A DNA stretch of 64,000 nt from Escherichia coli (GCF_050320075.1 NZ_CP190018.1); one strand, 5' to 3'. Counted from the first letter of the stretch, positions 1 to 44,647 are shown. Translations and numbers: made by a program. Notes: generated from the sequence alone by a model not told the origin.

Positions 1-112
1 AAAGCGCATAAAAATAACAACATAAAACACTTTACCACCACCAAAAAATTCTCTATTGCATTGTTTTTTAATGAAAAAACATTATTCTCGTAATATTTCA
101 CGATAAATAACA

Positions 113-132
113 TTAGGATTTTGTTATTTAAA
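113..132 (+). promoter_or_regulatory. GAD box (GadE-binding site) of the gadBC promoter
   Basis: The 20-mer TTAGGATTTTGTTATTTAAA lies about 80 nt upstream of the gadB ATG. It matches the published GAD box of the gadA/gadBC promoters (from memory). Confidence 0.8.
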
Positions 133-211
133 CCCGAGTCCTTTGCACTTGCTTACTTTATCGATAAATCCTACTTTTTTAATGCGATCCAATCATTTTA
201 AGGAGTTTAAA

Positions 212-1612
212 ATGGATAAGAAGCAAGTAACGGATTTAAGGTCGGAACTACTCGATTCACGTTTTGGTGCGAAGTCTATTTCCACTATCGCAGAATCAAA
301 ACGATTTCCGCTGCACGAAATGCGCGATGATGTCGCATTCCAGATTATCAATGACGAATTATATCTTGATGGCAACGCTCGTCAGAACCTGGCCACTTTC
401 TGCCAGACCTGGGACGACGAAAATGTCCATAAGTTGATGGATTTATCCATTAACAAAAACTGGATCGACAAAGAAGAATATCCGCAATCCGCTGCAATCG
501 ACCTGCGTTGCGTAAACATGGTTGCCGATCTGTGGCATGCGCCTGCGCCGAAAAATGGTCAGGCCGTTGGCACCAACACCATTGGTTCTTCCGAGGCCTG
601 TATGCTCGGCGGGATGGCGATGAAATGGCGTTGGCGCAAGCGTATGGAAGCTGCAGGCAAACCAACGGATAAACCAAACCTGGTGTGCGGTCCGGTGCAA
701 ATCTGCTGGCATAAATTCGCCCGCTACTGGGATGTGGAGCTGCGTGAGATCCCTATGCGCCCCGGTCAGTTGTTTATGGACCCGAAACGCATGATTGAAG
801 CCTGCGACGAAAACACCATCGGCGTGGTGCCGACTTTCGGCGTGACCTACACCGGTAACTATGAGTTCCCGCAGCCGCTGCACGATGCGCTGGATAAATT
901 CCAGGCCGACACCGGTATCGACATCGACATGCACATCGACGCCGCCAGCGGTGGCTTCCTGGCACCGTTCGTCGCCCCGGATATCGTCTGGGACTTCCGC
1001 CTGCCGCGTGTGAAATCGATCAGTGCTTCAGGCCATAAATTCGGTCTGGCTCCGCTGGGCTGCGGCTGGGTTATCTGGCGTGATGAAGAAGCGCTGCCGC
1101 AGGAACTGGTGTTCAACGTTGACTACCTCGGTGGTCAGATTGGGACTTTCGCCATCAACTTCTCCCGCCCGGCGGGTCAGGTAATTGCACAGTACTATGA
1201 ATTCCTGCGCCTCGGTCGTGAAGGCTATACCAAAGTACAGAACGCCTCTTACCAGGTTGCCGCTTATCTGGCGGATGAAATCGCCAAACTGGGGCCGTAT
1301 GAGTTCATCTGTACCGGTCGCCCGGACGAAGGCATCCCGGCGGTTTGCTTCAAACTGAAAGAGGGTGAAGATCCGGGATACACCCTCTACGACCTCTCTG
1401 AACGTCTGCGTCTGCGCGGCTGGCAGGTTCCGGCCTTCACTCTCGGCGGTGAAGCCACCGACATCGTGGTGATGCGCATTATGTGTCGTCGCGGCTTCGA
1501 AATGGACTTTGCTGAACTGTTGCTGGAAGACTACAAAGCCTCCCTGAAATATCTCAGCGACCACCCGAAACTGCAGGGTATTGCCCAGCAGAACAGCTTT
1601 AAACATACCTGA
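212..1612 (+). CDS. gadB: Glutamate decarboxylase beta (PLP-dependent)
   Basis: ORF 143..1612 was trimmed to ATG 212, which has AAGGAG upstream. The 466-aa product starts [19 protein letters not shown] and contains the SGHKF PLP-lysine motif. gadC follows. Confidence 0.96.
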
Positions 1613-1767
1613 TAACGTTTAACGGTAACGGTGTCCCGAAACACACCCGTTTCGGGACAATTTCCAAAGTCTGTTCACTGGCATTAGCAACGGAAAATAT
1701 TGTTCTGAATACGTTTCAGAACAAAACAGGTGCGGTTCCGACAGGAATACCGTTTTAGGGGGATAAT

Positions 1768-3303
1768 ATGGCTACATCAGTACAGACAGGTAAAGCTAAG
1801 CAGCTCACATTACTCGGATTTTTTGCCATAACGGCATCGATGGTAATGGCTGTTTATGAATACCCTACCTTCGCAACATCGGGCTTTTCATTAGTCTTCT
1901 TCCTGCTATTAGGCGGGATTTTATGGTTTATTCCCGTGGGACTTTGTGCTGCGGAAATGGCTACCGTCGACGGCTGGGAAGAAGGTGGTGTCTTCGCCTG
2001 GGTATCAAATACTCTGGGGCCGAGATGGGGATTTGCAGCGATCTCATTTGGCTATCTGCAAATCGCCATTGGTTTTATTCCGATGCTCTATTTCGTGTTA
2101 GGGGCACTCTCCTACATCCTGAAATGGCCAGCGCTGAATGAAGACCCCATTACCAAAACTATTGCAGCACTCATCATTCTTTGGGCGCTGGCATTAACGC
2201 AGTTTGGTGGCACGAAATACACGGCGCGAATTGCTAAAGTTGGCTTCTTCGCCGGTATCCTGTTACCTGCATTTATTTTGATCGCATTAGCGGCTATTTA
2301 TCTGCACTCCGGTGCCCCCGTTGCTATCGAAATGGATTCGAAGACCTTCTTCCCTGACTTCTCTAAAGTGGGCACCCTGGTTGTATTTGTTGCCTTCATT
2401 TTGAGTTATATGGGGGTAGAAGCATCTGCAACCCACGTCAATGAAATGAGCAACCCAGGGCGCGACTATCCGTTGGCTATGTTATTGCTGATGGTGGCGG
2501 CAATCTGCTTAAGCTCTGTTGGCGGTTTGTCTATTGCGATGGTCATTCCGGGTAATGAAATCAACCTCTCCGCAGGGGTAATGCAAACCTTTACCGTTCT
2601 GATGTCCCATGTGGCACCGGAAATTGAGTGGACGGTTCGCGTGATCTCCGCACTGCTGTTGCTGGGTGTTCTGGCGGAAATCGCTTCCTGGATTGTTGGT
2701 CCTTCTCGCGGGATGTATGTCACAGCGCAGAAAAACCTGCTGCCAGCAGCATTCGCTAAAATGAACAAAAATGGCGTACCGGTAACGCTGGTCATTTCGC
2801 AGCTGGTGATTACTTCTATCGCGTTGATCATCCTCACCAATACCGGTGGCGGTAACAACATGTCCTTCCTGATCGCACTGGCGCTGACGGTGGTGATTTA
2901 TCTGTGTGCTTATTTCATGCTGTTTATTGGCTACATTGTGTTGGTTCTTAAACATCCTGACTTAAAACGCACATTTAATATCCCTGGTGGTAAAGGGGTG
3001 AAACTGGTCGTGGCTGTTGTCGGTCTGCTGACTTCAATTATGGCGTTTATTGTTTCCTTCCTGCCGCCGGATAACATCCAGGGTGACTCTACCGATATGT
3101 ATGTTGAATTACTGGTCGTGAGTTTCCTGGTGGTACTTGCCCTGCCCTTTATTCTCTATGCTGTTCATGATCGTAAAGGCAAAGGGAATACCGGCGTCAC
3201 TCTGGAGCCAATCAACAGTCAGAACGCACCAAAAGGTCACTTCTTCCTGCACCCGCGTGCACGTTCACCACACTATATTGTGATGAATGACAAGAAACAC
3301 TAA
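1768..3303 (+). CDS. gadC: Glutamate:GABA antiporter (APC family)
   Basis: A 511-aa polytopic membrane protein starting [19 protein letters not shown], directly downstream of gadB. Confidence 0.96.
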
Positions 3304-3328
3304 CCATGTCTGAATGGTTATAAGATAA

Positions 3329-3356
3329 GGGAGCGATAATTCATCGCTCCCTTTTT
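3329..3356 (+). terminator. Rho-independent terminator after gadC
   Basis: GGGAGCGAtaattcaTCGCTCCC followed by TTTTT. Confidence 0.8.
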
Positions 3357-3433
3357 CGTGCTTGCTGTCGTATTGACTTAACCGGGATAAGTACGAGAAT
3401 GAGCGCACATCTGTTTACCGGAAACCAGCACAT

Positions 3434-4753
3434 ATGGATATCTGCTCCCGAAACGAGAAATTAGCGATTAGAAGACCAGCGATACTGGTTGCACTGGCAC
3501 TTTTACTGTGTAGTTGTAAAAGCACGCCTCCAGAGTCCATGGTGACACCACCAGCGGGTTCAAAGCCACCAGCCACGACGCAACAATCGTCACAACCGAT
3601 GCGTGGCATCTGGCTGGCTACGGTGTCTCGCCTCGACTGGCCACCGGTTTCCTCGGTTAACATTAGTAACCCCACCAGCCGGGCCCGTGTACAACAACAG
3701 GCGATGATCGACAAACTGGATCATCTGCAACGTCTCGGCATAAACACGGTCTTTTTCCAGGTCAAGCCGGACGGTACCGCCCTGTGGCCATCAAAAATTT
3801 TGCCGTGGTCCGATCTTATGACCGGAAAGATTGGTGAAAATCCAGGTTACGATCCGCTGCAATTTATGCTCGACGAAGCCCACAAGCGTGGGATGAAAGT
3901 ACACGCCTGGTTTAACCCCTATCGCGTATCGGTTAATACGAAGCCCGGTACTATCAGGGAACTGAATAGCACTCTGTCTCAACAACCAGCGAGCGTCTAT
4001 GTGCAACACCGCGACTGGATCAGAACGTCCGGCGATCGCTTTGTCCTCGACCCGGGCATCCCTGAAGTTCAGGACTGGATCACATCAATAGTCGCGGAAG
4101 TGGTTTCCCGCTATCCGGTAGATGGCGTGCAGTTTGACGACTATTTCTATACTGAGTCACCAGCTTCACGGCTAAATGATAACGAAACGTACCGCAAATA
4201 CGGAGGCGCATTTGCGTCAAAAGCAGACTGGCGGCGCAACAATACTCAGCAGTTAATTGCGAAGGTATCGCACACCATTAAAAGCATTAAGCCGGAAGTC
4301 GAATTTGGCGTTAGCCCGGCAGGCGTGTGGCGTAACCGATCACACGATCCGCTCGGTTCCGATACCCGAGGCGCGGCAGCCTATGACGAATCCTACGCTG
4401 ACACCCGTCGATGGGTGGAACAAGGATTGCTGGATTACATTGCTCCCCAAATTTACTGGCCGTTCTCACGGAGTGCCGCACGTTATGACGTTTTGGCAAA
4501 ATGGTGGGCAGATGTCGTTAAACCGACCAGGACCCGCCTGTATATCGGTATCGCCTTCTATAAAGTGGGTGAACCTTCAAAGATAGAGCCAGACTGGATG
4601 ATTAACGGCGGCGTACCGGAACTGAAAAAACAGCTCGATCTTAACGATGCCGTGCCAGAAATTAGCGGCACAATCTTGTTCCGTGAGGACTATCTGAATA
4701 AACCGCAGACTCAACAAGCGGTTAGCTATCTGCAAAGTCGTTGGGGCAGTTAA
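3434..4753 (+). CDS. yddW: Glycosyl-hydrolase-like (GHL10) lipoprotein
   Basis: A 439-aa ORF with a signal/lipobox-like N-terminus (ALALLLCSCKS), in the K-12 yddW position next to gadC. Confidence 0.9.
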   Translation: MDICSRNEKLAIRRPAILVALALLLCSCKSTPPESMVTPPAGSKPPATTQQSSQPMRGIWLATVSRLDWPPVSSVNISNPTSRARVQQQAMIDKLDHLQRLGINTVFFQVKPDGTALWPSKILPWSDLMTGKIGENPGYDPLQFMLDEAHKRGMKVHAWFNPYRVSVNTKPGTIRELNSTLSQQPASVYVQHRDWIRTSGDRFVLDPGIPEVQDWITSIVAEVVSRYPVDGVQFDDYFYTESPASRLNDNETYRKYGGAFASKADWRRNNTQQLIAKVSHTIKSIKPEVEFGVSPAGVWRNRSHDPLGSDTRGAAAYDESYADTRRWVEQGLLDYIAPQIYWPFSRSAARYDVLAKWWADVVKPTRTRLYIGIAFYKVGEPSKIEPDWMINGGVPELKKQLDLNDAVPEISGTILFREDYLNKPQTQQAVSYLQSRWGS

Positions 4754-4775
4754 ACTCCCATTCATACTTTGTGAC

Positions 4776-4800
4776 AAGCCGGTGGTTTACCCACCGGCTT
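4776..4800 (+). terminator. Hairpin terminator after yddW
   Basis: AAGCCGGTGGtttacCCACCGGCTT. The T-run is weak. Confidence 0.55.
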
Positions 4801-5129
4801 GCTACCCTCTTGAAATATCCCACTAGTAATCATGCTTACTTAAGTCAAATTAACTACGCAATTAACCACACTTAGTTAAACAGTCATAAATCCCCTAATA
4901 AAAATGTATGAACATGAAAAAACATACGATATTCGCTGTCACCGAAAAATAATTACGATGGGCTATACTCTTCTGAAGAACAGTAGCGTAGATTGAAACT
5001 GTCCTAAGTCGCTTATTTCTTTTCAGTATATCTTCATATTTCAGGAGAATATGGTGCAGTTAGTCGATCTCGCACGTTGCGTTTCGTTTTGATTCCGTCT
5101 GCTTTCCCAGCCTTATAAGGGTGTGAATT

Positions 5130-5467
5130 ATGGAGATGTATTTTAAAAGAATGAAAGATGAGTGGACCGGGCTTGTCGAACAAGCAGATCCGCTCATTCG
5201 TGCTAAAGCCGCGGAAATTGCCGTTGCGCATGCCCATTATCTGAGTATTGAGTTTTACCGAATTGTCCGTATCGACCCGCATGCCGAAGAATTCTTGAGT
5301 AATGAACAAGTTGAGCGGCAGTTGAAAAGTGCGATGGAACGCTGGATTATTAACGTGCTTTCTGCCCAGGTGGACGATGTCGAAAGGCTAATACAAATCC
5401 AGCATACCGTTGCGGAAGTGCATGCCCGCATAGGAATTCCGGTAGAAATTGTCGAGATGGGGTTTCG
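5130..5467 (+). pseudogene. dosC: dosC 5' fragment (globin-sensor domain only), truncated by IS1
   Basis: MEMYFKRMKDEWTGLVEQADPL... matches the DosC N-terminus for about 112 codons. It then runs into the IS1 left inverted repeat at 5468, and the ORF ends in IS1 sequence at 5489. No GGDEF domain follows. Confidence 0.92.
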
Positions 5468-5522
5468 GGTGATGCTGCCAACTTACTGATTTAGTGTATG
5501 ATGGTGTTTTTGAGGTGCTCCA

Positions 5523-5798
5523 GTGGCTTCTGTTTCTATCAGCTGTCCCTCCTGTTCAGCTACTGACGGGGTGGTGCGTAACGGCAAAAGCACCGCCGGA
5601 CATCAGCGCTATCTCTGCTCTCACTGCCGTAAAACATGGCAACTGCAGTTCACTTACACCGCTTCTCAACCCGGTACGCACCAGAAAATCATTGATATGG
5701 CCATGAATGGCGTTGGATGCCGGGCAACCGCCCGCATTATGGGCGTTGGCCTCAACACGATTTTCCGCCATTTAAAAAACTCAGGCCGCAGTCGGTAA
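5523..5798 (+). CDS. insA: IS1 InsA
   Basis: A 91-aa zinc-finger/HTH protein, [32 protein letters not shown]... Confidence 0.95.
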
Positions 5799-6220
5799 CC
5801 TCGCGCATACAGCCGGGCAGTGACGTCATCGTCTGCGCGGAAATGGACGAACAGTGGGGATACGTCGGGGCTAAATCGCGCCAGCGCTGGCTGTTTTACG
5901 CGTATGACAGGCTCCGGAAGACGGTTGTTGCGCACGTATTCGGTGAACGCACTCTGGCCACACTGGAGCGTCTTCTAAGCCTGCTGTCGGCCTTTGAGGT
6001 CGTGGTATGGATGACGGATGGCTGGCCGCTGTATGAATCCCGCCTGAAGGGAAAGCTGCACGTAATCAGCAAGCGTTACACTCAGCGAATTGAGCGGCAT
6101 AACCTGAATCTGAGACAACATCTGGCAAGGCTGGGACGGAAGTCACTGTCGTTCTCAAAATCGGTGGAGCTGCATGACAAGGTCATCGGGCATTATCTGA
6201 ACATAAAACACTATCAGTAA
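5717..6220 (+). CDS. insB: IS1 InsB frame (expressed as InsAB' transposase by -1 frameshift)
   Basis: A 167-aa ORF overlapping insA. The AAAAAAC slippery site is at 5774..5780. Confidence 0.93.
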
Positions 6221-6235
6221 GTTGGAGTCATTACC

Positions 6236-6430
6236 GAAAATTCAACAGCAGAACCCGCTCTGGTTAATGCCATTGAGCAAGGCCTTCGGGCAGAGCACGG
6301 TGTTGTCACTGAAGATGACATTCTCATGGAGCTGACCAAATGGGTGGAAGCTTCTGATAACGACATCCTCAGTGATATCTACCAGCAAACGATCAATTAT
6401 GTGGTCAGTGGCCAGCACCCTACGCTTTAA
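6236..6430 (+). pseudogene. bdm: bdm lacking its promoter and first 7 codons
   Basis: The frame starting immediately after IS1 reads ENSTAEPALVNAIEQGLRAEHGVVTEDDILMELTKWVEASDNDILSDIYQQTINYVVSGQHPTL*. This is Bdm residues 8-71, with no start codon. Confidence 0.88.
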
Positions 6431-6825: not shown

Positions 6826-8523
6826 ATGGAACCAAAAACAAAAAAACAGCGTTCGCTTTATATTCCTTACGCTGGCCCTGTACTGCTGGAATTTCCGTTG
6901 TTGAATAAAGGCAGTGCCTTCAGCATGGAAGAACGCCGTAACTTCAACCTGCTGGGGTTACTGCCGGAAGTGGTCGAAACCATCGAAGAGCAAGCGGAAC
7001 GAGCATGGATCCAGTATCAGGGATTCAAAACCGAAATCGACAAACACATCTACCTGCGTAACATCCAGGACACTAACGAAACCCTCTTCTACCGTCTGGT
7101 AAACAATCATCTTGATGAGATGATGCCTGTTATTTATACCCCAACCGTTGGCGCAGCCTGTGAGCGTTTTTCTGAGATCTACCGCCGTTCACGCGGCGTG
7201 TTTATCTCTTACCAGAACCGCCACAATATGGACGATATTCTGCAAAACGTGCCGAACCATAATATTAAAGTGATTGTGGTGACTGACGGCGAACGTATTC
7301 TGGGGCTTGGTGACCAGGGCATCGGCGGGATGGGCATTCCGATCGGTAAACTGTCGCTCTATACCGCTTGTGGCGGCATCAGCCCAGCGTATACCCTTCC
7401 GGTGGTGCTGGATGTCGGGACGAATAACCAACAGCTGCTTAACGATCCGCTGTATATGGGCTGGCGTAATCCGCGTATCACTGACGACGAATACTATGAA
7501 TTCGTTGATGAATTTATCCAGGCTGTGAAACAACGCTGGCCGGACGTACTGTTGCAGTTTGAAGACTTCGCACAAAAAAATGCGATGCCGTTACTTAACC
7601 GCTATCGCAATGAAATTTGTTCTTTTAACGATGACATTCAGGGCACCGCGGCGGTAACGGTCGGCACACTGATCGCAGCCAGCCGCGCGGCAGGTGGTCA
7701 GTTAAGCGAGAAAAAAATCGTCTTCCTTGGCGCAGGTTCAGCGGGATGCGGCATTGCCGAAATGATCATTGCCCAGACTCAGCGCGAAGGATTAAGCGAG
7801 GAAACGGCGCGGCAGAAAGTCTTTATGGTCGATCGCTTTGGCCTGCTGACCGACAAGATGCCGAACCTGCTGCCTTTCCAGACCAAACTGGTGCAGAAAC
7901 GCGAAAACCTCAGTGACTGGGATACCGACAGCGATGTGCTGTCACTGCTGGATGTGGTGCGTAATGTAAAACCAGATATTCTGATTGGCGTCTCAGGACA
8001 GACCGGGCTGTTTACGGAAGAGATCATCCGTGAGATGCATAAACACTGTCCGCGTCCGATCGTGATGCCGTTGTCTAACCCGACTTCACGCGTGGAAGCC
8101 ACACCGCAGGACATTATCGCCTGGACTGAAGGTAACGCGCTGGTCGCCACTGGCAGTCCGTTTAACCCAGTGGTATGGAAAGATAAAATCTACCCTATCG
8201 CCCAGTGTAACAACGCCTTTATTTTCCCGGGCATCGGGCTGGGCGTTATTGCTTCCGGCGCGTCACGTATCACCGATGAGATGCTGATGTCGGCAAGTGA
8301 AACGCTTGCTCAGTATTCGCCACTGGTGCTGAACGGCGAAGGTCTGGTACTGCCGGAACTGAAAGATATTCAGAAAGTCTCCCGCGCAATTGCCTTTGCG
8401 GTTGGCAAAATGGCGCAGCAGCAAGGCGTGGCGGTGAAAACCTCCGCCGAAGCTCTGCAACAGGCCATTGATGATAATTTCTGGCAAGCCGAATACCGCG
8501 ACTACCGCCGTACCTCCATCTAA
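6826..8523 (+). CDS. maeA: NAD-dependent malic enzyme
   Basis: ORF 6790..8523 trimmed to [23 protein letters not shown] (565 aa). Confidence 0.96.
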
Positions 8524-33046: not shown

Positions 33047-35023
33047 ATGCAGCTTAATCATATCGTTAAAAGTCTGCTAATAACGGGATTATTCACCACC
33101 AGTTCTTTACCTCTCCTCGCGGCGGAAGCTCCTAAAGACGCCACCGCAGCCACGCAACAAGCAAACAATTTACTCTACAACCAGTTGCCGTTTGCCGATA
33201 ACACTGACTTTACTGATGCCCATAAAGGTTTTATTGCCCCTATCCCTCAAGACGTGATTAAGGGCGAACAAGGGAATGTTATCTGGGATCCACAACATTA
33301 CGCTTTTATCAAAGAAGGCGATAAAGCCCCTGATACGGTGAATCCGAGTTTATGGCGTCAGGCGCAACTGATAAATATCAGCGGGTTATTCGAAGTAACT
33401 GAAGGTGTCTATCAGATTCGCAATCTCGATCTATCAAATATGACCATCATTGAAGGCAAAGAGGGTATTACCGTCGTTGATCCCCTTGTTTCAGCAGAAA
33501 CAGCCAAAGTGGGTATGGATCTCTATTACAAAAATCGCGGCAAAAAACCGGTAGTGGCGGTTATCTATACACACAGTCATGTCGATCACTACGGTGGTGT
33601 TCGTGGCGTAATTGATGAAGCTGACGTTAAATCAGGCAAAGTTAAAATCTATGCGCCAGCCGGATTTTTGGAGGAAGCCGTTTCCGAAAACATCATGGCT
33701 GGCAATGTTATGAGCCGACGAGCCAGTTATATGTATGGCAACTTATTGAAACCTGATGTTAAAGGCCAGGTGGGGGCTGGACTGGGAACGACTACTTCAG
33801 CAGGAACAGTCACGTTGATTGCTCCTACTAACTACATCACCAAAACCGGACAAATAGAAACTATTGACGGGTTGACTTATGATTTCCTGATGGCGCCAGG
33901 TTCTGAAGCGCCTTCTGAAATGCTGTGGTTTATTGAAGAAAAGAAACTGATCGAAACCGCTGAAGATGTCACGCACACCCTTCATAACACCTATTCGCTG
34001 CGTGGGGCTAAAATTCGCCAACCGCTGCCGTGGTCAAAATATATTAATGAAGCTCTCAATTTGTGGGGTGATAAAGCCGAGATTATTCTCGCTCAACATC
34101 ACTGGCCAACCTGGGGCAACGATAACGTGGTCAAACTGCTTAAAAGCCAGCGTGATTTGTATCGTTACATCAATGATCAAACTCTGCGCATGGCTAATCA
34201 AGGGATGACCCGTGATGAAATTGCCGCAAACTTTAAACTGCCCTCTTCACTGGCTAACACCTGGGCGAATCGCGGCTATTACGGTTCGGTAAGTCATGAC
34301 GTGAAAGCAACTTACGTGCTTTATCTCGGCTGGTTTGATGGTAACCCCGCGACGCTTGATGAACTGCCGCCAGAAGAAGGCGCAAAAAAATTCGTCGAGT
34401 ATATGGGCGGTGCTGATGCCATTTTACAGAAAGCCACACAGGATTATGACCAGGGTAATTTCCGCTGGGTTGCCCAAGTTGTTAGTAAGGTGGTGTTTGC
34501 CGATCCAAACAACCAGGCAGCGAGAGATCTGGAAGCTGATGCGCTTGAGCAGTTAGGCTATCAGGCTGAATCTGGGCCGTGGCGTAATTTCTATCTCACT
34601 GGTGCACAGGAATTGCGTAATGGCGTACAAAAATTACCAACACCAAATACTGCCAGCCCAGACACCGTGCGTGCGATGACGCCGGAGATGTTCTTTGATT
34701 ATCTTGCCGTCCATATTAATGGTGAGAAAGCGGCAGATGCCAAAACCGTGTTGAATTTCGATTTTGGTGAAGATGGCGGCACCTATAAAGTGGAGCTTGA
34801 AAATGGTGTTCTCAATCATACCGCTGGTGTAGAGGCTTCGGATGCTGATGCCACTATCACTCTGTCTCGTGATGTATTGAACAAAATTGTACTGAAAGAA
34901 GAGACGCTGAAAGAAGCCACGGCCAAAGGAGATGTCAAAATTACTGGCAATGAGGAAAAACTCAACGAGCTGTTAGGTTATATGGATAATTTTGAATTTT
35001 GGTTCAATATAGTGACACCATAA
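33047..35023 (+). CDS. Periplasmic alkyl/aryl-sulfatase, SdsA1/YjcS type (metallo-beta-lactamase fold plus SCP2-like C-terminus)
   Basis: A 658-aa ORF with GGAG upstream and signal peptide ...SSLPLLAAEAPKD. It has the HSHVDHYGG (HxHxDH) motif and the typical C-terminal tail ...GDVKITGNEEKLNELLGYMDNFEFWFNIVTP. As I recall the K-12 layout, it is not present at this locus there. Confidence 0.85.
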   Translation: MQLNHIVKSLLITGLFTTSSLPLLAAEAPKDATAATQQANNLLYNQLPFADNTDFTDAHKGFIAPIPQDVIKGEQGNVIWDPQHYAFIKEGDKAPDTVNPSLWRQAQLINISGLFEVTEGVYQIRNLDLSNMTIIEGKEGITVVDPLVSAETAKVGMDLYYKNRGKKPVVAVIYTHSHVDHYGGVRGVIDEADVKSGKVKIYAPAGFLEEAVSENIMAGNVMSRRASYMYGNLLKPDVKGQVGAGLGTTTSAGTVTLIAPTNYITKTGQIETIDGLTYDFLMAPGSEAPSEMLWFIEEKKLIETAEDVTHTLHNTYSLRGAKIRQPLPWSKYINEALNLWGDKAEIILAQHHWPTWGNDNVVKLLKSQRDLYRYINDQTLRMANQGMTRDEIAANFKLPSSLANTWANRGYYGSVSHDVKATYVLYLGWFDGNPATLDELPPEEGAKKFVEYMGGADAILQKATQDYDQGNFRWVAQVVSKVVFADPNNQAARDLEADALEQLGYQAESGPWRNFYLTGAQELRNGVQKLPTPNTASPDTVRAMTPEMFFDYLAVHINGEKAADAKTVLNFDFGEDGGTYKVELENGVLNHTAGVEASDADATITLSRDVLNKIVLKEETLKEATAKGDVKITGNEEKLNELLGYMDNFEFWFNIVTP

Positions 35024-35037
35024 ATTTACTGCATACC

Positions 35038-35060
35038 GGGCAGGTATCCTGCCCTTTTTT
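35038..35060 (+). terminator. Rho-independent terminator after the sulfatase gene
   Basis: GGGCAGGtatCCTGCCC followed by TTTTTT. Confidence 0.8.
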
Positions 35061-35069
35061 GGTTAAAAA

Positions 35070-36167
35070 ATGGCTGAACGAAGAAAAACTCATCACTCAT
35101 GGAAAACCCGCCGCGATATGGTTATTCGCGGCATGACGATTAGTTTGCCATGGTTTGCTTTTATCAATGTCAGTTTTGCATTGATAATTTTGCTGCGCCG
35201 TGTTCTGTTTAATGACCTTACTCCACCCTGGTTAAATGAAAAAAGCCTTATACATTCTATTGATATATCTGCAACGGGTATTCTGCTGATTTGCAGTGGT
35301 TTACTACTCATCCCTCGGCAAAAAACATTACCTATCCAGGTGCTATTAGTTGCCCTGAGCCTGCTATGGTCATGGTGTAGTTATCACTTTATTGCGTACT
35401 GGACGCTGCAGTTTGCTTATCCACTATGTGTATTATTAATGCTTAGTGGCGTTGTCGCACTTTATTTCCATACCCCATCATTGCTCGCATTTGTCATTCC
35501 CTTATGGTTCACCACTCCAATAGCGAGTCTTATGCTTAATCAACAGATCAATATTCATTTTGCTGTTGTATGGTGTATTTTTTCACTGGCGCTATATGGT
35601 GGGCGACTCATTTTGTTACGTTGGTTTGAAGAAGCATGGGTACAAAACAGTTATAACAACCAGTTAATTAATCGCCTTGATGCATTAGCACATCGTGATC
35701 CTTTAACTGGGATAGCAAACCGACGTGCAATGAACAGTATCTTACACGACGCGATGGATAACGGCGGGTCATTTGCTCTTATTATGCTGGATGTCGATTT
35801 TTTTAAACGTTACAACGACACTTACGGGCATCCTGCTGGGGATCGTTGTCTAATACAAGTTGCCGACGCTCTACAGCGTTCAACTCGCCAGTCGGAGGAT
35901 GTTGTTGTCCGTTATGGTGGCGAAGAGTTTGCCATCATACTTTTTAATGCAACATTGCCGGAAGCAGAGACGGTAGCAGCCAGAGTGAAGCAAGAACTTA
36001 AACTGGCAGCTATCCCACATCAGGCATCTGCTGTTAATGCATTTGTTACGGTTAGTCAGGGGATTACCTGTTCTGCTCCCGCAAAAACGGCTGAACAAAT
36101 TATTTCAGATGCCGACGCTGCGTTATACCGGGCGAAAGAAAGTGGGCGAAATCGATGGGCTTTATAA
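35070..36167 (+). CDS. Membrane-anchored diguanylate cyclase (about 6 TM N-terminal domain plus GGDEF domain, active-site GGEEF)
   Basis: A 365-aa ORF. The hydrophobic N-terminal half is followed by RDPLTGIANRRAM...DVDFFKRYNDTYGHPAGD...RYGGEEFAIILF. The start is uncertain: ATG 35070 lies only 10 nt after the terminator T-run, and in-frame alternative ATGs are at 35118 and 35133. Confidence 0.85.
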   Translation: MAERRKTHHSWKTRRDMVIRGMTISLPWFAFINVSFALIILLRRVLFNDLTPPWLNEKSLIHSIDISATGILLICSGLLLIPRQKTLPIQVLLVALSLLWSWCSYHFIAYWTLQFAYPLCVLLMLSGVVALYFHTPSLLAFVIPLWFTTPIASLMLNQQINIHFAVVWCIFSLALYGGRLILLRWFEEAWVQNSYNNQLINRLDALAHRDPLTGIANRRAMNSILHDAMDNGGSFALIMLDVDFFKRYNDTYGHPAGDRCLIQVADALQRSTRQSEDVVVRYGGEEFAIILFNATLPEAETVAARVKQELKLAAIPHQASAVNAFVTVSQGITCSAPAKTAEQIISDADAALYRAKESGRNRWAL

Positions 36168-36224: not shown

Positions 36225-37061
36225 TAATAATTGTCTATAGCTATCTTCTTAGCGATGTCTTTCTGGTATCACATTGGATCGGTGCAATTATTTTTCCTTT
36301 AATACCCATTATGTTAAGAAATTCAGAAACAGCTGTAATCTCATTGTTTTTTTCATTCGTCTTGATCTTCCAAGGAATCTGACTGTGCATTATTGAGAAC
36401 ACACTAATAACGTGAATCGCTCCCTTGCGACGACTCTTGTCATAAGAGTACCGGAGCGTTTTTCCATCAATTGCAATGACGTCTTTATCATCTGAAGAAT
36501 GGCAGTCAAGCATCCAGTTAATAAAGCACTCATAAAATTTTTCAGGACTGATACAGGATACAACTCTGGCAATGGTATCGTGAACAGGAATACCATTATC
36601 AAAATCACCATATTGCTTCAAAAAATCGAGATGTGTTTCCCCAAAATCCTCTATATCTTCCCAGCCTTCTGCACCCGAAATAACGGCACAAATAGTCAAC
36701 AGTAGAATATCCGATAATTTATGTTCCACTTTCCAGGCTTGTCTGTAATCGGGGATAATAGAAATATGTCCCATCAATTTTTTAAGTTCCATTTTGTTCT
36801 CCTTAATTATGTAAGGAGTATTTGATCATGTATACGCAATAAAAAACAGCTTCAGGTAATGAGGAATATCTCAATTGTTAAACATAAAATGCGAATTGTC
36901 TAGTACAAAAAAGCAGCGTTACGTGATCTTTCCGTGGATCGTCAAATTGTTCGAGAGAAAATACCAACATGATGGATTTTACTGTAAAAGTAATGTCGTA
37001 GTTTAAAAACTCATCATCCGGTAAAGCCTTGTGGGGCGTGGGCTTTCATACTTTTACCCTG
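36225..37061 (-). mobile_element. H-repeat / ISAs1-family element, 3'-truncated remnant
   Basis: The outer end ...GGGCTTTCATACTTTTACCCTG at 37061 matches the inverted repeat of the complete copy at 43800. The transposase frame degenerates after about residue 165, and homology (…QKDIAKKI in a shifted frame) stops near 36225. Confidence 0.75.
36241..36792 (-). pseudogene. ydcC: H-repeat (ISAs1-family, DDE) transposase N-terminal fragment
   Basis: [62 protein letters not shown]... The 183 aa compare with about 378 aa for a full-length H-rpt protein. The end is frameshifted. Confidence 0.8.
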
Positions 37062-37377
37062 ATGTCTGCTATACGCCGGACACCCTTTACGTAGCATTCG
37101 GAATTCACCCGTAAATTTATCACGGCGGTATCACGAAACCTCCGGTTCTGATGCCGCTTAGGACTAACGACACGTCAACACAGGTTCGGGTTTATTCATT
37201 TCACTGTATCTCATATAATCTGAGCACTCCCCCTGCGCTCGCTACTATGACTCTTTACCACAGCAACCGGGGTTGTTTGGGATCGGCTTTCAACAGCAGA
37301 TCCCGGTGGCTATTGCAAGTAAGTCTACTTTCCACATCAGTGTTACTGACACAGAAAATAATGAGTTATGATCCTTG

Positions 37378-37863
37378 TCATATTTTTAATATAGCCCCAT
37401 GAGCTATAGGATCAAAACCTTCTAACCATGAGGTGTTTTTATCGAATAATGCATCTGTTATATTTATATCGCCATATCTATCACATAATAAATTAGCGCC
37501 ACATAAGTCAGCACCAGAAAAATTTGAATCTTTAACGTCTGCATTGCAAAAGGTTGAATTAGTTAATATAGCACCCTCAAAGTTTGCACCTATTGACCTT
37601 GAATTACTAAAGTCACTTCCAGTGAAATCTGAGTTATTAAGAATAGCGTTCATCAGAGCCGCATTGCGAAAGACAGCATTTCTAGTTGATGTATGTTGAA
37701 TCATTACATTTCTTAAATGGGAATTTTCAAATTTCGCCCCATCAAGACAATAACCATTGAGGATGGCACGATGTAGATCCATCCCGCTAAAATCATATCC
37801 AGCAAGAGTGGTACTATCTATATCAAGAAATTTATTGGTTATTAAAAACGCGATTCTTATCAT
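37378..37863 (-). CDS. ydcD: Pentapeptide-repeat protein, candidate RhsE immunity protein
   Basis: A 161-aa ORF with about 20 consecutive A(D/N)LXX-type pentads ([30 protein letters not shown] ... [10 protein letters not shown]). Its ATG overlaps the rhsE stop (ATGA). Confidence 0.85.
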
Positions 37864-40800
37864 CTATTCCCCCAATCATCTAACTCCGGAAAAATTTGGC
37901 TAAACGGATATAGTGGTGCCGATAATGGACGCGTACCTGGCCGCTCAGGAGGAAGTTTATCACATAACAGACCCGCAACCATCCTGTGATTACCATTAAC
38001 AATCACATTCCCATCCATATCAACCGGTGGTGCTCCACTACCATCTTCCAGCATTTGTACGTAGTGAGCTACTACGGGTACTGAGACTTTTTGTTGTACT
38101 GTCAACAAGGGACTGTTGGCCACAACCATCCTGATGTTTTCAGGTGTCGTAGGTAAACATTTAGTCTTCTCTTGACTAAAGGTATCATCCCACAATTTTG
38201 TTAAACCCATCACTGCCTGTTGTCTGTATTTATCCATGGGGTCAGCAATCAACCAAGATGGACCTGACTGCTCTATGGAATCTTCTCCGGAGAGACCCAA
38301 CGGATCTATCTTAGTAGTTGGATTCAATGGATACTGATACAGGTTCCATGCACCTCTTAGCCCAATGGGATCCTGGGTGATATACCGCCCCTGCAACGGG
38401 TCATAGTACCGGTTGCGGTTATAGTACAGCCCCGACTCCTCATCATACTGCTGCCCCGGCAGACGGTACGGCTGTTGCAGTTGCTGCGCGCTGGTTTCGC
38501 CCAGCAGGTTTCCCCACTCGTCATACTCCCCCTGCCACGCCGTTTCCCCTTCCGGGCTGATGAGCGCCTGCGGCAGCCCCCGGTGGTCGCAGTGGTAAAG
38601 ATGAAGTGTCCTCTCCGGGATGTATTCCGCCTCCATCTGGTTTTTCATCTGTTCCGCCGTCAGCCCGCACTGCTGAAGCCATGCCTCACTCTCCGCACTC
38701 ACCGCACCCGCGCGCAGTTCCCGCTCCAGCCTCCCCAGCATCACCGACAGCTCCGCCGGTAGCGTCACCCCCGTGTCCTCCTGCAACACCTCCGCCAGAC
38801 TCCGGTGCCGCGCCTTCGCCTGTTCACCATTCTCTGTTTCGATTCTGATGAGCGGCGTGAAGCTCCCCGGCTGGTATACCGTCTGGATACGCGTGGTGCC
38901 GGTCTGTACCGTCGTCAGCCTGTCACCGTCCCACCCGTACCAGGTCTCCTCCGGTTTACGCGACAGCGACATCCACCCCGTCAGGTCACGCTCCCGCCGC
39001 CACACCCGTTTCCCCGTCCGGCGGCCCAGCGGGTCATAGAGGTAGCGGCTCTCCACCTGTGGCTCGCCGTGCTGTATCCGCGTGTAGAACACCAGGCGGT
39101 GCTGGCTGTCGTAATGGTAGTGGTGCGTCCGCTCGTCGTGCATCCGTATCACCCCTTCCGGGATACGGTCCGTCTTCTCCGCCAGCCTGCCGTATTCATC
39201 GTAGCGGTAGACATAGTGCGCATCTTCCGTGATGCGGTTATCCGGCCACGCCGTGAAGGTGCTGTCCGGGTGCAGTTCCGGGTCCGGCAGCCGGTTTCCT
39301 GCCGGGTCCGTCGCATACGGGATATCGATATCCAGGTTCGCCGCCGTGGTGTGAACGCCCGTCAGTCTTCCCGTGTCGCTGTAACGGTACTTCCGGCTCT
39401 CCTGCGGGCCGCTGATGCGCACCAGTTGCCCGTTATCGTTCCACGTATACTCACGGTCAAGCTGCGGAAGGTTCAGGTGCCTGCTCCGGAGCTGCCCTGT
39501 GAGGGTGTACGCCGTGGCCTGTTCGTACCCCGCTGTACTGCCCGCCCCGCCGAAGCTGCGGGCCGTCTCACGGTGCAGCCGGTCCCGCGTGTACTCGACC
39601 AGCGGCGTTCCGCCCAGCTTCATCCCCGCAAGATAACCGCTGCCATACGTCAGCCACTCCACCGGCGGCAGACCGTCCGGCTCCTGACGGGTCGCCAGCC
39701 CCTGTTCGCTGTAGACGTGCCTCGTCTCATGCTCCCACAGCATCTCCCCCGTCTCCTGGTTCTCCACCGTCTGCCGTTCGCCCGTCAGGCGGCCTTTATC
39801 GTCATAGCCGTAGTGGACCGCCACACGGTGGCCTTCGCTCAGGTGGCTGATTTCTGTCAGCCAGCCGTGGTCGTCATACTGCCACTGCTCCGCCGGGTCG
39901 CCGTTCACCGTCCGGTGCGTGATGCGCCCGGCGTCATCGTAGTACCACTGCGTGACCTGCCCCTCATCCTCGCTGCGGATGAGCTGCCCTGTGGCGCTGT
40001 ACCGGTAACGCTGTGTCCTGCCGTCAAAGCCGCGCTGCTCCGTCAGCCTGTCCACCGGGTCATACCGGAACGTGGACTGGCTGCCGTTCTCGTTGGTCAG
40101 CACGGTGATGCGCCCGGCGGCGTCATACTCCATGCTGCGCGTCAGTCCGCCCTGCGTGGTGCTGACGGCCTTTCCCCACGCATCATACTGTGTCTCACTC
40201 CGGCTGCCGTTCGGGGCAATGATAGCGGTGAGGTCGCCTGCGGCGCTGTACTCATAACGGGTTTCACGTCCCTGCGCATCCTTCTGACTGACCAGTTGAC
40301 CACGCGGGTTATAACTGCTGTAAGTGCTGATGCCTTCCTCCCGGTGAACCGCCGTCCTCTGACCGTACCGGTCGTATTCATACCGCGTCGTGTACCCTGA
40401 ACAGTCCGTAAATGCCTGAAGCTGACCGTACCGGTTTCGCGTTATTCTCCGCCTCACCCCGGTTCCGTCTTCCACCGCACAGGGCAGGCCACTGCGGGAA
40501 GAATCATAAAACCAGCGCGTAATGTTACCGTTGCGCGAGACCTCTTCCGCCAGCCTGCCCTGACGGTCATATTTCCGGCTGCGGCGCAGCCCGTCCGGGT
40601 ACGTCACTGACGTCAGTTGCAACTGGTTGTTGTAACCATACCGTACCGTCCTGCCGTCCGGCAGTATCACTGAAGTCAGCTTTCCCGACGCCATATGCAG
40701 CCGGTACTCCGTCCGCCGTCCCGCCGCATCCGTCTGCGCCTTCAGCCTCCCCGCCTCATCATACTCGCTGCGGGTGATGCTCCCGTCCCCATACTCCTTC

Positions 40801-42071
40801 TTCACCACCCGCTTCAGGCCGCCCTCGCCCTCCGTGTACAGCACCTCCCGCCGGTTCAGGCTGTCCGTGATGGTCACGCGGTCCTGCCCGTACTCAAAGC
40901 GGTAGTCCAGCCCCTCCGGGTTGACCTGCTCCGTCACCCGACCGGTATCATCATACCGGTAGCGGCTCTCCGGCCTCCCCGCATAATGGTGCGCCACCAT
41001 CCGCCCGGCGTGCTCCGCATCATAAGTAAACCCGCGCACCTGCGTCCCGCTGCGGTCATACACCGCCCGCAGTTCTCCGCTGGCCGTGTACGTGTAGCGC
41101 GCCAGCGGCGCAGTCGGCAGTTCATCCGGGTATGCCGGGTCGTGTGTCAGCCATACCGCCTCCAGCCGGATACCGTTATCGGCACCGTACTCTGTACCGG
41201 TGGGCAGCGTGTCGGGGAAAAACTGAGAAGAGGAAACAGAACGGGGACTGGCCGGAGAAGATAAAGAAGACTCGCGCTGTTTACGGAAGGCTTTCGCCCG
41301 CTGCGCCTGTGTGGTCAGCGCCAGATGAAAACGGCGGCCCGCGCCGTCCGTCACCCCCGTCACCGCGCCCGCCGCTTCCCCCTCTGCCGCCCGGTGGAAG
41401 GCCAGCGTCCGCCCGAAGCCGTCCACCACGCCCGTCAGCACCCGGTATGCGGGCGGCTCCGGCGGCAGCACCTCGTCCGCCTCCGGCACCCGCTCCGGCC
41501 AGCCGAGTATCCACCACGGCCCCTGAAGGCTGTTTGTCGCCAGGTACACATGCGGGCTTAAGCGGAGACTCTCCGGCAGCACCTGCCAGAGCGCGCTTAG
41601 CGGCTGCGAACTGTGCTGCTCCGCCACCCCGCCCCTTGCCAGCCAGAACGACTCGCTGCGGCTGTAGCTTATCTCGCCGGGAAACAGCGGCTCAAAGTGA
41701 ATGCTCCTGCCGCCACTGTCGTTGAGTATCAGTTCCCGCTCATGAACCTGTAAGCGGATATCGAAGGGCGCTTTCCAGCCGGGACCAAACACCCCCACCG
41801 GCGCGGGTGTCCTGGTCCGGTAGCTGCTGTAGGCGCGGGAAAGAATAAACGGCAACGGGCCGGGCAGCGCAAGATCCGTCTCGCCCGGCAGCACCTTCGC
41901 ACCCAGTAGCGGGTTCACCGGGTTACCCTTCTGCTCCTCCACCGGGCTGTTGGGACACACCGAGCAGGCCACTCCCGTCGGCGCACCTATCAGCACCCCC
42001 GCTGAACCCTGCACAATATCCAGTCCCTTGCGGGTCATATCGCCCTGTCGCGCCGCCGGTTTTCCGCTCAT
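37860..42071 (-). CDS. rhsE: Full-length Rhs polymorphic toxin (N-terminal PAAR-like domain, YD-repeat shell, variable C-terminal toxin tip)
   Basis: A 1403-aa protein starting [16 protein letters not shown]...[12 protein letters not shown]. It has many YD/RY repeats, and the core ends at ...[39 protein letters not shown]. The core is GC-rich, and the last roughly 430 nt are AT-rich. Confidence 0.93.
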
Positions 42072-42090
42072 GGTTTATTCCTTAAATTAT

Positions 42091-42282
42091 TTATGGTTTT
42101 ATTCTGAGTGCAATCCATACTGATTCATAACCAGTGAATAAGATTTCCCCGAATAATCTATATAAATTAGCGAAGTCCTCTTCACTAATTAACCGTAAAA
42201 TCCCGTACCAATGAAATATAAAAATAACCACCCACACAAATTTATTGCAAATATTATTTATTATTGTATATACATCATTCAC
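42091..42282 (-). CDS. yncH: Small hydrophobic protein upstream of rhsE
   Basis: A 63-aa ORF, MNDVYTIINNICNKFVWVVIFIFHWYGILRL..., ending 19 nt before the rhsE ATG. The K-12 positional equivalent is yncH. Whether it is really coding is uncertain. Confidence 0.55.
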   Translation of the reverse strand: MNDVYTIINNICNKFVWVVIFIFHWYGILRLISEEDFANLYRLFGEILFTGYESVWIALRIKP

Positions 42283-42482
42283 TGAACGTTCTCAAACTGC
42301 ATACCTTAGAACCATCAATTAAAGCCACAACAAAAAAAATCGATTACTTTATGTCGCATGACAAATATGAATTACATATTAATCAACCTTAAAAACAATC
42401 ATCTCTTATAATTAACAGCATACCATGAGAAACACAAAATCAATTTACCATGCATACCAGGAGCATAATTAACCTCTCACCG

Positions 42483-43800
42483 CAGGGCGAAATCATGAAG
42501 GCCCGCAGCCAGCAAGGATTAGAGAAAGGTATTCATTCTTACGTCCTGCCCGCTTTTGCTTGCGTTTAATACCCGCTTTAAAGCTATTCTCTGCGGTCAG
42601 TAAATTCATCGCGATATGTCGACAAACTGCCAGATTTTCTCCCGCTTCTCCACGAACAATCTGGCATTCATCTTCCCGCATCCCCATATCAAGTCGCCAG
42701 TGCAGTTGATTTTCTACCGACCAGTGTGCTCGTGTTGCTTCCAGGAGTTCTTTCGCCGTAAGCGTCACCGAACTTATGTAGTAGCGAAGAATACACTTCT
42801 CTGATTTCACCGCTGTTTCTCCTTCCTGTCTGCTCGCCAGCACTATTCCTATCGTGCTCAGCTCTGACCATTCATAAGCTAAATCACCCAGAGCGGTTAA
42901 ATCATGGCTCACAATGCAGCATCGTGTATCTTCCCGTCCATGCCCTTTTTCCTGCGTGCTGTAACTGTCATACCTCTCACCCAGCCACATTGTCGGCGAG
43001 TACCCGTTATCAAACGCCTCCGCTAATTTTCCCTGATTTCCTTTCAGCGCCAGCAGGTAACCGGCTTTCTTTTTCAGAATTTCACGGGCGATTATATGCT
43101 GGCAACCCATTGCATCCAGCGTGACCAGACACCCTTTTAATTCCAGCAACTGGAGCCGTTCCGGGATCGCCGTTATCTCATTCGATTTTGCCCCTGTTTT
43201 CACCTGCCCCAAAACCAGACGATTTTCTGCGCTAAAAGCACTGACCCTATGGATCACGGCATTACGTTTCGATTTATCGTAAGTACCCCGTAATGACTTA
43301 CCATCAATCGCCACAACAGAGCCTTCAGACAACGTGTGACAGTCCTTCATCTACTGGATAAAAAGGGGCTGTAATTGTTTTGCTGAAATCATTCCCATCA
43401 CTCGGGCAATCGTGTGATGGGAGGGGGTGCCATTTTCAAAATCACCATACAGGCGTAACCATTCCAGATGCTCCTCACCAAAATCAGCAATTTCTTCCCA
43501 TCCTTCAGCGCCACCGATAATGGCGGTGATCGTCAGAAAAAGGATATCCGCCAGGCTGTAACTGGTTTTCCAGGACTGGCGATAATCGTGAATAATTGAA
43601 ATTTGATCCAAAAGGCTTAGTCCGTTCATGGTGTGCTATCCATCAAAAAGAAAGGATAAGATCACACTGAAATAAGATGGTCAAATTGATCGAAAAAAAA
43701 GATCAACATGATGGGTTTTACGATAAAAGTAATGTCGCGATTTAAAAATTCATCATTCACCAAAGTCTTGTGGGGCGCGGGCTTTCATGCTTTTTCCCTG
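42483..43800 (-). mobile_element. Complete H-repeat / ISAs1-family element (1318 bp)
   Basis: It has imperfect 24-bp terminal inverted repeats. One is CAGGGCGAAATCATGAAGGCCCGC at 42483. The other, the reverse complement of 43777..43800, is CAGGGAAAAAGCATGAAAGCCCGC. No clear target duplication was found. Confidence 0.8.
42493..43629 (-). pseudogene. ISAs1-family transposase interrupted by one in-frame amber codon
   Basis: Track ORFs 43351..43629 and 42493..43350 are contiguous in one frame: ...QLQPLFIQ-TAG-MKDCHTLSEGSVVAIDGKSLRG. The remnant copy has W at the equivalent position (FINWMLDCH), which implies TGG to TAG. Confidence 0.85.
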
Positions 43801-44040
43801 ATACGCTACCGCTCTGCCCTGATAACATGATCTGCACGGCGCTATCATATCGACATATTTCTCTACATGCGAAAGGATGTTTTATTTTCGGATTATATTA
43901 AATTGATATTTCATATAAAAAACGAGATTACATAAATCATATAAATAATTGTACCAACTTTAATTACCATTCATAGCAAACAAATGGATGTCCAGTTAAC
44001 TACGCCAGTGATTTATTAACATTAATCTCCGGCATTATTG

Positions 44041-44647
44041 TTAAATAATGGCATTCCTTTTTAGTATTTCTTGTAACGTTGGTATCGGACATACAGCATC
44101 AGCAATCGCACTGATATTCGCGGCATTATCTTGAAACCATTCATGCCCCGGTCCCCATATGCGCATAACGCAGAGATAAGGGTAGCTGATCGCCAAACGC
44201 ATAAGGTTCAGCAGTGAGCTACGAATTCAACCAGATATAAAACGATTTTCGATATTCAATAACATTCTTCTTTAACTGTTCGGGTGCGTCAGGAGCCCAA
44301 CGCTCAGGGTAATCGGCGAAAGTGAATGTTGGATAGACATTAGCAACCAGCCAGACCAATAGCCGTTGAAACTGCTGACGTTCGGCGCGCCCAACCGGTG
44401 GCGCAAGGTCCGGGCGACGATCGAGAACCATCAATGCAATCGCCGCTGTCTCCGTCATAATCTCGTCATTTTCCAGCGCCAGTGTCGGAATCTGACACAA
44501 CGGGTTCAGGGTTTTCAATAACTCGCGTGAGGTTCCCTCGTGGTCAAAACCACTGACATCAACGAACTGATAAGGAATATCAGCCAGTGTTAGCATCAGC
44601 TCACTGATTGTAGAGCCCCATCCGGGTACGCCATACACCTTAATCAT
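44041..44647 (-). pseudogene. yncG: Glutathione S-transferase homolog, decayed (nonsense plus frameshift)
   Basis: The 142-aa ORF stops at TAG 44219..44221. The same frame continues LTAEPYAFGDQ..., and after a frame change reads WGPGHEWFQDNAANISAIADAVCPIPTLQEILKRNAII* ending at 44041. This is the missing GST C-terminal domain. Confidence 0.8.

Follow-up and report, generated by a model that had tools for sequence, protein, structure and literature searches.

The question raised by this locus is how a full-length rhs gene with a PAAR-like N-terminus could be delivered when no vgrG, chaperone or other type VI secretion system (T6SS) gene lies near it. The gene stands on the minus strand, at 37860–42071, of a 64,000-nucleotide (nt) stretch of Escherichia coli DNA (GCF_050320075.1, NZ_CP190018.1); the whole stretch was analyzed and is referred to as the window, with positions counted from its first letter. 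The window represents the E. coli chromosome at the rhsE locus, between yncG and pptA. A sequence-only reading had described the gene as an intact rhsE preceded by a small yncH-like open reading frame (ORF) and an H-rpt element, had proposed the ORF product as a candidate accessory factor, and had suggested that delivery depends on a T6SS encoded elsewhere.

The explanation favored here is that the gene encodes an orphan T6SS Rhs effector of the aspV type residing at the rhsE site, which has its own immunity gene, is carried in trans by a VgrG encoded elsewhere, and is preceded by a small ORF of chance origin; a probability of roughly 0.7 is assigned to this explanation as a whole. The element, confined to one lineage, would thus constitute a complete effector at the classical rhsE site, composed of a PAAR-like tip of about 48 residues, an Rhs cage, a DPxGL boundary and a C-terminal toxin of about 100 amino acids (aa), with the immunity gene next to it. 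The toxin would act on DNA or a DNA-bound target through nucleotide-dependent phosphotransfer or cleavage, and its pentapeptide-repeat partner, if DNA-shaped, would block it by mimicry. A full-length rhs gene without a nearby vgrG is routine in E. coli, and this one requires no new biology. Other strains have a vgrG at the same site, and the genomes with the locus keep a T6SS with an Rhs of the same tip.

The rhs gene and its predicted toxin–immunity pair

The rhs ORF, which encodes an RHS element core protein plus a toxin tip, was complete at 1403 aa, as had been read from the sequence; it starts with an ATG at 42071, and the Shine-Dalgarno sequence AAGGAA lies 6 nt ahead of this codon. The NCBIfam model NF041261 (RHS_core) matched end to end (residues 1–1260 on model positions 1–1261, 2513 bits vs. 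a cut-off of 2000), indicating that the gene is complete, and Pfam matches comprised 11 RHS_repeat units (1e-76), DUF6531 at residues 49–126 and RHS at residues 1157–1191. The boundary between the core and the variable tip was located at DPLGL (residues 1256–1260; 38292–38306, minus strand) by the position of the motif, the end of homology and a shift in G+C content. In detail, the TIGR03696 Rhs-associated core spans residues 1183–1260, similarity to other Rhs cores ends at residue 1260–1261, and the G+C content drops, the core having 64%, the tip 45% and the following gene 34%.

Sequence identities place the core in the aspV vgrG-linked Rhs subfamily and not in the rhsE type. It was 88.5% identical in aa (about 90% in nt) to the Sakai aspV Rhs (ECs_0237), the gene of which directly follows vgrG in a T6SS island, while the identity to the Rhs at the Sakai rhsE site was 72.9% in aa and 76.7% in nt, and that to the K-12 rhsE fragment about 81% in nt. 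The DNA homology to the aspV rhs genes of Sakai and of strain C1, a genome 99.9% identical to the window over 33 kb, begins 1 nt before the ATG. Hence, the earlier label rhsE is right for the chromosomal site but does not suit the core (72.9% aa identity to the Rhs at the Sakai rhsE site vs. 88.5% to the aspV Rhs). The accompanying remark that K-12 rhsE is only a fragment proved accurate, as it is a pseudogene fragment of 2049 nt. RhsH, an element of the RhsG/H subfamily, was reportedly mapped next to RhsE by Wang, Zhao and Hill in 1998, and we presume that the window gene may be RhsH or a relative.

The N-terminus had been called PAAR-like, and this description held in so far as a literal PAAR motif is found at residues 5–8, but the Pfam PAAR_motif stayed below its cut-off and the stretch ahead of the Rhs shell is only about 48 residues long. 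The PAAR-like tip (residues 1–48, ...GVACSVCP; 41928–42071, minus strand) is presumed to be the VgrG-docking piece, on the basis of this sub-threshold match and of an analogy with Tse5. Residues 51–172 aligned with the solved shell fragment of Tse5 from the first residue of that fragment (PVNP..., E 9e-16); residues 1–47 of Tse5 have a predicted PAAR-like fold, and Tse5 is delivered by its VgrG (PMC9637101). By analogy, the short tip of the window Rhs presumably caps a VgrG. Residues 3–40 are identical to those of the vgrG-adjacent aspV Rhs of Sakai and C1, while the rhsE-type tip differs at 5 positions. Membership in the prePAAR/Eag-dependent class was also considered and rejected, as K replaces H in AARxxDxxxH, no hydrophobic domain precedes DUF6531 (residue 49), and the annotation of neither the window nor the aspV island includes an Eag gene.

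The C-terminal toxin domain covers residues about 1305–1403 (37863–38159, minus strand) and had no match in Pfam, NCBIfam, PADLOC or PDB sequences. Relatives of the tip were collected by an exhaustive HMMER search, which yielded 326 cluster representatives, while a word-indexed search gave only 2. In most of them, the domain, of about 100 aa, closes a large polymorphic toxin (Rhs, haemagglutinin-type or other) at its extreme C-terminus or stands in a short orphan cassette. Thirty members of the family showed neither a ParBc nor any other Pfam match, and a profile search against PDB sequences was empty. Conserved positions were numbered in the 115-aa tip of the alignment termed A2 and compared in alignments of 30 and 60 sequences: G72, H74 and R75 were invariant in both and N73 nearly so, which together form the G-N-H-R of Rhs residues 1360–1363, while Q38, S42 and the terminal D-W-G-N (within the C-terminal DWGNR of the window protein) did not vary among the 30 sequences and reached a conservation of at least 90% among the 60. 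By eye only, G-x-H-R resembles the phosphate-binding motif of sulfiredoxin (Srx) and ParB. An AlphaFold2 (AF2) model of the tip was built from the 60-sequence alignment (the single-sequence model had a predicted local distance difference test score, pLDDT, of 36), and Foldseek of the tip model against the PDB returned no significant match. A ParB/sulfiredoxin-like fold is tentatively predicted for the tip from this modeling.

The gene downstream (37378..37863, minus strand), the start of which overlaps the rhs stop by 4 nt, encodes a 161-aa pentapeptide-repeat protein (Pfam Pentapeptide, 1.4e-19, 69.7 bits vs. 20.2). Pentapeptide-repeat orthologues of 159–162 aa directly follow tip homologues in Salmonella, Paenibacillus and Pseudomonas; they are 31–36% identical to the window protein, collinear over the full length, and reach 65–100 bits with Pfam Pentapeptide. 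This conserved pairing of tip and pentapeptide gene marks the downstream gene as the probable cognate immunity gene rather than a T6SS accessory. Cassettes made of the toxin domain and a pentapeptide gene of about 160 codons were recorded at three loci (L009, 4001–5052; L011, 4001–4836; L012, 4001–4839), their settings being a Salmonella Rhs orphan array, a Gram-positive Paenibacillus and a position behind a CdiA gene in Pseudomonas; for the pentapeptide genes of these cassettes, the precomputed Pfam field contained no entry.

Pentapeptide-repeat proteins can imitate DNA, and for this reason a DNA-directed toxin blocked by mimicry is proposed. The main alternative to DNA mimicry is gyrase protection, in which the toxin would target DNA gyrase or topoisomerase and the pentapeptide protein would shield that target, like Qnr, MfpA and McbG, without binding the toxin. 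Pentapeptide-repeat proteins are known as gyrase protectors, as described in two reports (PMC7897471, PMC10886550), and the immunity protein gave sub-threshold matches to MfpA (1.9e-8) and the Qnr families (4e-8). However, these matches are far under the family cut-offs and of the kind that any pentapeptide-repeat protein gives, the window protein is shorter (161 vs. 183–218 aa), and its strict association with the toxin, one to one in different phyla, is what immunity proteins with direct toxin binding usually show, so that protection of gyrase appears unlikely. That the gene could instead be a T6SS accessory of the TagAB/TagB type was considered as well, since pentapeptide-repeat accessory genes occur in vgrG islands (PMC3942780), but the canonical immunity position with its 4-nt overlap, and orthologues that follow toxin cassettes in the Salmonella array, after the Pseudomonas CdiA gene and in Gram-positive Paenibacillus, make this assignment highly improbable.

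The tip and its partner may further define an undescribed and widespread toxin/immunity family, that is, an enzyme of ParB/sulfiredoxin fold acting on DNA or a DNA-bound target and a pentapeptide-repeat protein that neutralizes it by DNA mimicry; this proposal is a tentative one and we regard it as doubtful in its full extent. In the open-access literature searched, no account of a ParB-fold toxin paired with pentapeptide-repeat immunity was found. If true, the proposal would establish a pentapeptide-repeat protein as the cognate immunity protein of a contact-dependent toxin for the first time. Nothing else at the locus is as unusual as this pair, which offers a testable case of immunity by DNA mimicry.

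The missing vgrG and the insertion sequence and leader in its place

The absence of T6SS genes noted from the sequence was borne out: a tblastn search of the window with two VgrG and two Hcp proteins (E ≤ 1) gave zero matches, and no T6SS or Eag gene is annotated in collinear genomes that cover nearly all of the 64 kb, the only uncovered part being 16157–16924 (768 bp, probably an IS1). The annotation of these genomes over the covered length contains housekeeping genes and insertion sequence (IS) copies only. At the same site, Sakai has the order ansP-yncG-yncH-(820 nt)-vgrG ('vgrE')-rhs-...-ISEc1 fragment-pptA, and the rhsE of EDL933 likewise lies downstream of a vgrG, as reported in an in-silico survey (PMC7216683). 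In the window, an ISAs1 copy and a lineage-specific leader stand where Sakai has yncH and vgrG. The gene order, established from the C1 annotation and our own ORF and Pfam scans, is on the minus strand ansP, yncG pseudogene, ISAs1, leader, rhs, the 161-aa gene, spacer, ISEc1-like copy, GGDEF, sulfatase and pptA.

The simplest reading of these structures, which we infer from sequence comparison, would be that an IS-bounded block, consisting of the divergent ISAs1, the leader, the aspV-type core, a new tip and the immunity gene, took the place of vgrG-rhsE in an older element. The locus would then show plainly how Rhs cores are shuffled among chromosomal sites within IS-bounded blocks and lose their spike gene. 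Past the immunity gene, the match to the Sakai rhsE element resumes, over 91 nt and the ISEc1 fragment (89–91% identity).

The leader (42072–42482, minus strand; 411 nt, 31% G+C) was recognized as lineage-specific by its blastn distribution. Including the small ORF, it was found as a single copy in each of 144 among 5426 E. coli genomes at an identity of at least 99%, even with distant blastn settings, and shows no relation to the vgrG-rhs spacer. Co-occurrence of the IS, leader and toxin tip is limited to these same 144 genomes, with no IS-free version among the 5426. In a search for an origin outside E. coli, an exact 22-mer across the junction of leader and ATG had 0 matches. A consensus scan of the leader's coding strand revealed nothing resembling a promoter, and counts of promoters and terminators were at the level of shuffled sequence and therefore uninformative.

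Within the leader, the ORF scan yielded the 63-codon ORF with a GTG start (42091–42282, minus strand), which has no annotation from the Prokaryotic Genome Annotation Pipeline (PGAP). As previously stated, it ends 19 nt upstream of the rhs ATG. The designation yncH-like, however, could not be upheld: no counterpart of the K-12 and Sakai YncH (70 aa, DUF5445) turned up in the window, where tblastn with the Sakai protein gave only a spurious match at another place (E 0.49). The window homology to K-12 and Sakai ends exactly at the yncG stop codon (window 44043), so the true yncH is absent from the window. The 63-aa product belongs to no Pfam (even at E ≤ 10), NCBIfam or PADLOC family, its sole relative among 5.8 billion clustered proteins is itself, and a back-translated search of 185,579 species-representative genomes found zero relatives. 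The leader-carrying genomes hold a median of 8 places matching a 9-kb rhs-containing query; since the leader is single-copy in genomes with many rhs genes, the ORF is not a companion of other rhs genes.

An ORF of at least 63 codons arose in 8–13% of shuffles of 421 nt at 31% G+C (P about 0.08–0.13), that is, the ORF is no longer than expected by chance. Its GTG start lacks a clear Shine-Dalgarno sequence, and its product has one hydrophobic stretch, at residues 14–33; AT-rich DNA tends to encode hydrophobic residues. Most likely, the 63-codon ORF is a chance reading frame in AT-rich DNA and not a gene.

Probable delivery in trans

The suggestion that delivery would need a T6SS encoded elsewhere, together with the proposed search for T6SS clusters and vgrG, was followed up in related genomes, and a T6SS was found in all those sampled. 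Chimeric queries, which combined the unique 421-nt leader with 400 nt of Sakai tssC or vgrG, were used to count matching places per genome. Sakai-type tssC was present in 60/60 sampled genomes with the locus, and two vgrG copies in 40/40. Strain C1 contains a complete aspV T6SS island with tssA-M genes, two hcp, a vgrG and an adjoining rhs. These counts, the C1 island and the identical tip support the suggestion. Over its last 120 aa, the aspV VgrG of C1 does not differ from that of Sakai (100% identity) but is only 69% identical to the VgrG of the rhsE site; together with the identity of the tips, this indicates the aspV VgrG as the carrier, a pattern that fits matched VgrG/tip pairs. Most likely, then, judging from these sequence correspondences, the aspV T6SS supplies the VgrG on which the window Rhs is mounted in trans. 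The comparison also suggests that the VgrG partner of an orphan Rhs can be predicted from the sequence of its tip and not from which gene lies beside it. In C1, the vgrG-adjacent aspV rhs (L007, 26081–30581) is frameshifted near codon 501, and the rhsE-site gene with the same tip may be the intact cargo for the aspV VgrG.

Two further readings were weighed. The gene may be no secreted weapon in this lineage and instead a silent relic or an internal module resembling toxin/antitoxin (TA) pairs, as proposed for Salmonella RHS. No local vgrG, no recognizable promoter in the leader and a flanking IS pseudogene would agree with this, and, to our knowledge, K-12 keeps intact rhs genes without any T6SS. 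Salmonella RHS elements are reported to behave as type II TA modules (PMC7043789). But the 4.2-kb ORF and the immunity gene are intact in the sampled genomes, with at least 80% of a 9-kb stretch centered on rhs found in 139 of 5426 E. coli genomes (and 100% identical in many complete ones) and the locus 99–100% identical across 139–144 carrier genomes, the delivery tip is identical to that of the vgrG-linked paralogue, and a T6SS and two vgrG copies occur in every sampled genome; this reading is thus judged improbable. The small hydrophobic ORF, on the other hand, had been regarded as a YncH-like accessory factor, a chaperone or adaptor for the window Rhs, a role to which its position on the same strand 19 nt before rhs and its hydrophobic stretch would be suited. 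On conservation this is already refuted: the ORF has no similarity to YncH, no family and no homologue, exists in one E. coli lineage only, and is absent from all other E. coli rhs loci when its conservation beside rhs genes is checked. In addition, vgrG-linked Rhs with the same tip do without such a gene, and the chance-level length, the GTG start, the missing Shine-Dalgarno sequence and a hydrophobicity expected of AT-rich DNA leave an accessory role scarcely credible.

Several points nevertheless weigh against the orphan-effector explanation. The presence of a T6SS is deduced from genomes 99–100% identical at the locus and not from the window's own genome, and the frameshift in the C1 aspV rhs means that activity of the island is not guaranteed. 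The T6SS of the enterohaemorrhagic E. coli (EHEC) type is reported to be silenced by H-NS (PMC13141884). The N-terminal match to the Pfam PAAR_motif (PF05488) reached 16.3 bits vs. 27, with residues 2–29 on profile positions 21–51 of 70, and a scan of the full protein gave none. DNA mimicry is argued from what is known of other pentapeptide-repeat proteins, and the order of the IS-mediated events is read from end-point structures only.

Insertion sequences, flanks and comparison with known systems

The upstream IS (42483–43800, minus strand), identified by Pfam, PGAP and comparison with ISEc1, is a divergent H-rpt of the ISAs1 family with Pfam DDE_Tnp_1 and DDE_Tnp_1_assoc matches and an internal stop in its transposase, and given this stop it is presumably inactive. 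Its ends were read from the inverted repeats, which start from CAGGG at 43800 and 42483, and compared with ISEc1; the right end at 42483, 200 nt from the small ORF, agrees with the sequence-only reading. This end (...TTCGCCCTG) lies 10 nt past the transposase stop, and the same spacing occurs in the ISEc1 of Sakai and K-12. The copy shares only about 67% identity with K-12 H-rpt sequences, megablast found no other copy in the 5426 E. coli genomes, and its 3′ end occurs in none but the same 144, which suggests, from sequence divergence, that it may have been imported with the rhs block from outside the species.

A truncated ISEc1-like ISAs1 copy (36242–37061, minus strand), oriented like the upstream one, follows the immunity gene. 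Between it and the immunity gene, a group II intron fragment (37202–37310, minus strand; Rfam RF01999, 48 bits vs. a gathering threshold of 36, E 1.7e-7) was detected, 91 nt of which also occur downstream of Sakai rhsE at 89% identity. The ISAs1 left inverted repeat (CAGGG.AAAAG.ATGAAAGCCC) forms the beginning of a 127-nt direct repeat (36937–37063 and 43676–43802, 83% identity), the downstream copy of which is outside the annotated left end of ISEc1, so that the downstream ISAs1 copy looks composite. Outside the left end of the upstream ISAs1, 38 nt (43801–43838, GTGCAGATCATGTTATCAGGG...GGTAGCGTAT) are also present in K-12 (L002, about 7578–7615), where they are located about 310 nt upstream of the truncated rhsE, without an IS; by this correspondence, the stretch may be a relic of the element's older upstream region. 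The yncG pseudogene (44041–44647, minus strand) is the last conserved backbone gene. Alkyl/aryl-sulfatase and GGDEF genes (33047–36167) lie between the downstream ISAs1 fragment and pptA and have no counterpart there in K-12 or Sakai. Compared with C1, the window has a 768-bp insertion of IS1 length at 16157–16924, and in its first part (about 1–6236) an IS1-associated junction joins gadBC/digH to bdm, with the ddp-dosP segment missing.

That orphan full-length rhs genes are common in E. coli is already known, and the novelty of this locus is modest, consisting of an aspV-type core at the rhsE site within an IS-bounded block and of an uncurated pair of ParB-like tip and pentapeptide protein. 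Among known systems, the E. coli Rhs elements (RhsA-H), in particular the vgrG-linked aspV Rhs, share with the window gene the full-length core match, 88% aa identity, an identical PAAR-like tip, a GC-rich core with AT-rich tip, the DPxGL motif, a downstream immunity gene and flanking H-rpt/ISAs1; unlike the aspV Rhs, the window gene resides at the rhsE site without an upstream vgrG and has a lineage-specific leader and another toxin tip. The Sakai rhsE element (yncH-vgrE-rhs, ECs_2059-2061) and K-12 rhsE have in common with it the yncG-pptA site and the downstream remnant with the ISEc1 fragment, but their cores are only 73% identical in aa and 77–81% in nt, and the window contains neither vgrE nor yncH, while K-12 rhsE keeps yncH and only the 3′ third of the core. 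The orphan rhsA-D genes of K-12 and EDL933 are likewise full-length, with the same short tip and no adjoining vgrG, but they belong to another core subfamily and have a tip variant of the TQYGGP type; they have already been called orphans and presumed to use any VgrG in the EDL933 survey (PMC7216683).

Outside E. coli, Tse5 of Pseudomonas aeruginosa (PA2684) has the same architecture, with a PAAR-like piece of about 47 residues, an Rhs shell from PVNP, a C-terminal toxin and no Eag chaperone, but its gene adjoins its vgrG, its toxin is pore-forming and its immunity protein is a membrane protein. With respect to the toxin, Tox-ParB and Tox-ParBL1 (Zhang et al., 2012; PMC3482391) similarly end Rhs, haemagglutinin-type and other polymorphic toxins with a fold of the ParB superfamily, the fold of the window tip being a predicted one. 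They differ in that no Pfam model matches the window tip and that their immunity families are Imm20, Imm27, SuFu, SUKH and Imm44, the word 'pentapeptide' being absent from PMC3482391, while the partner of the window toxin is a pentapeptide-repeat protein.

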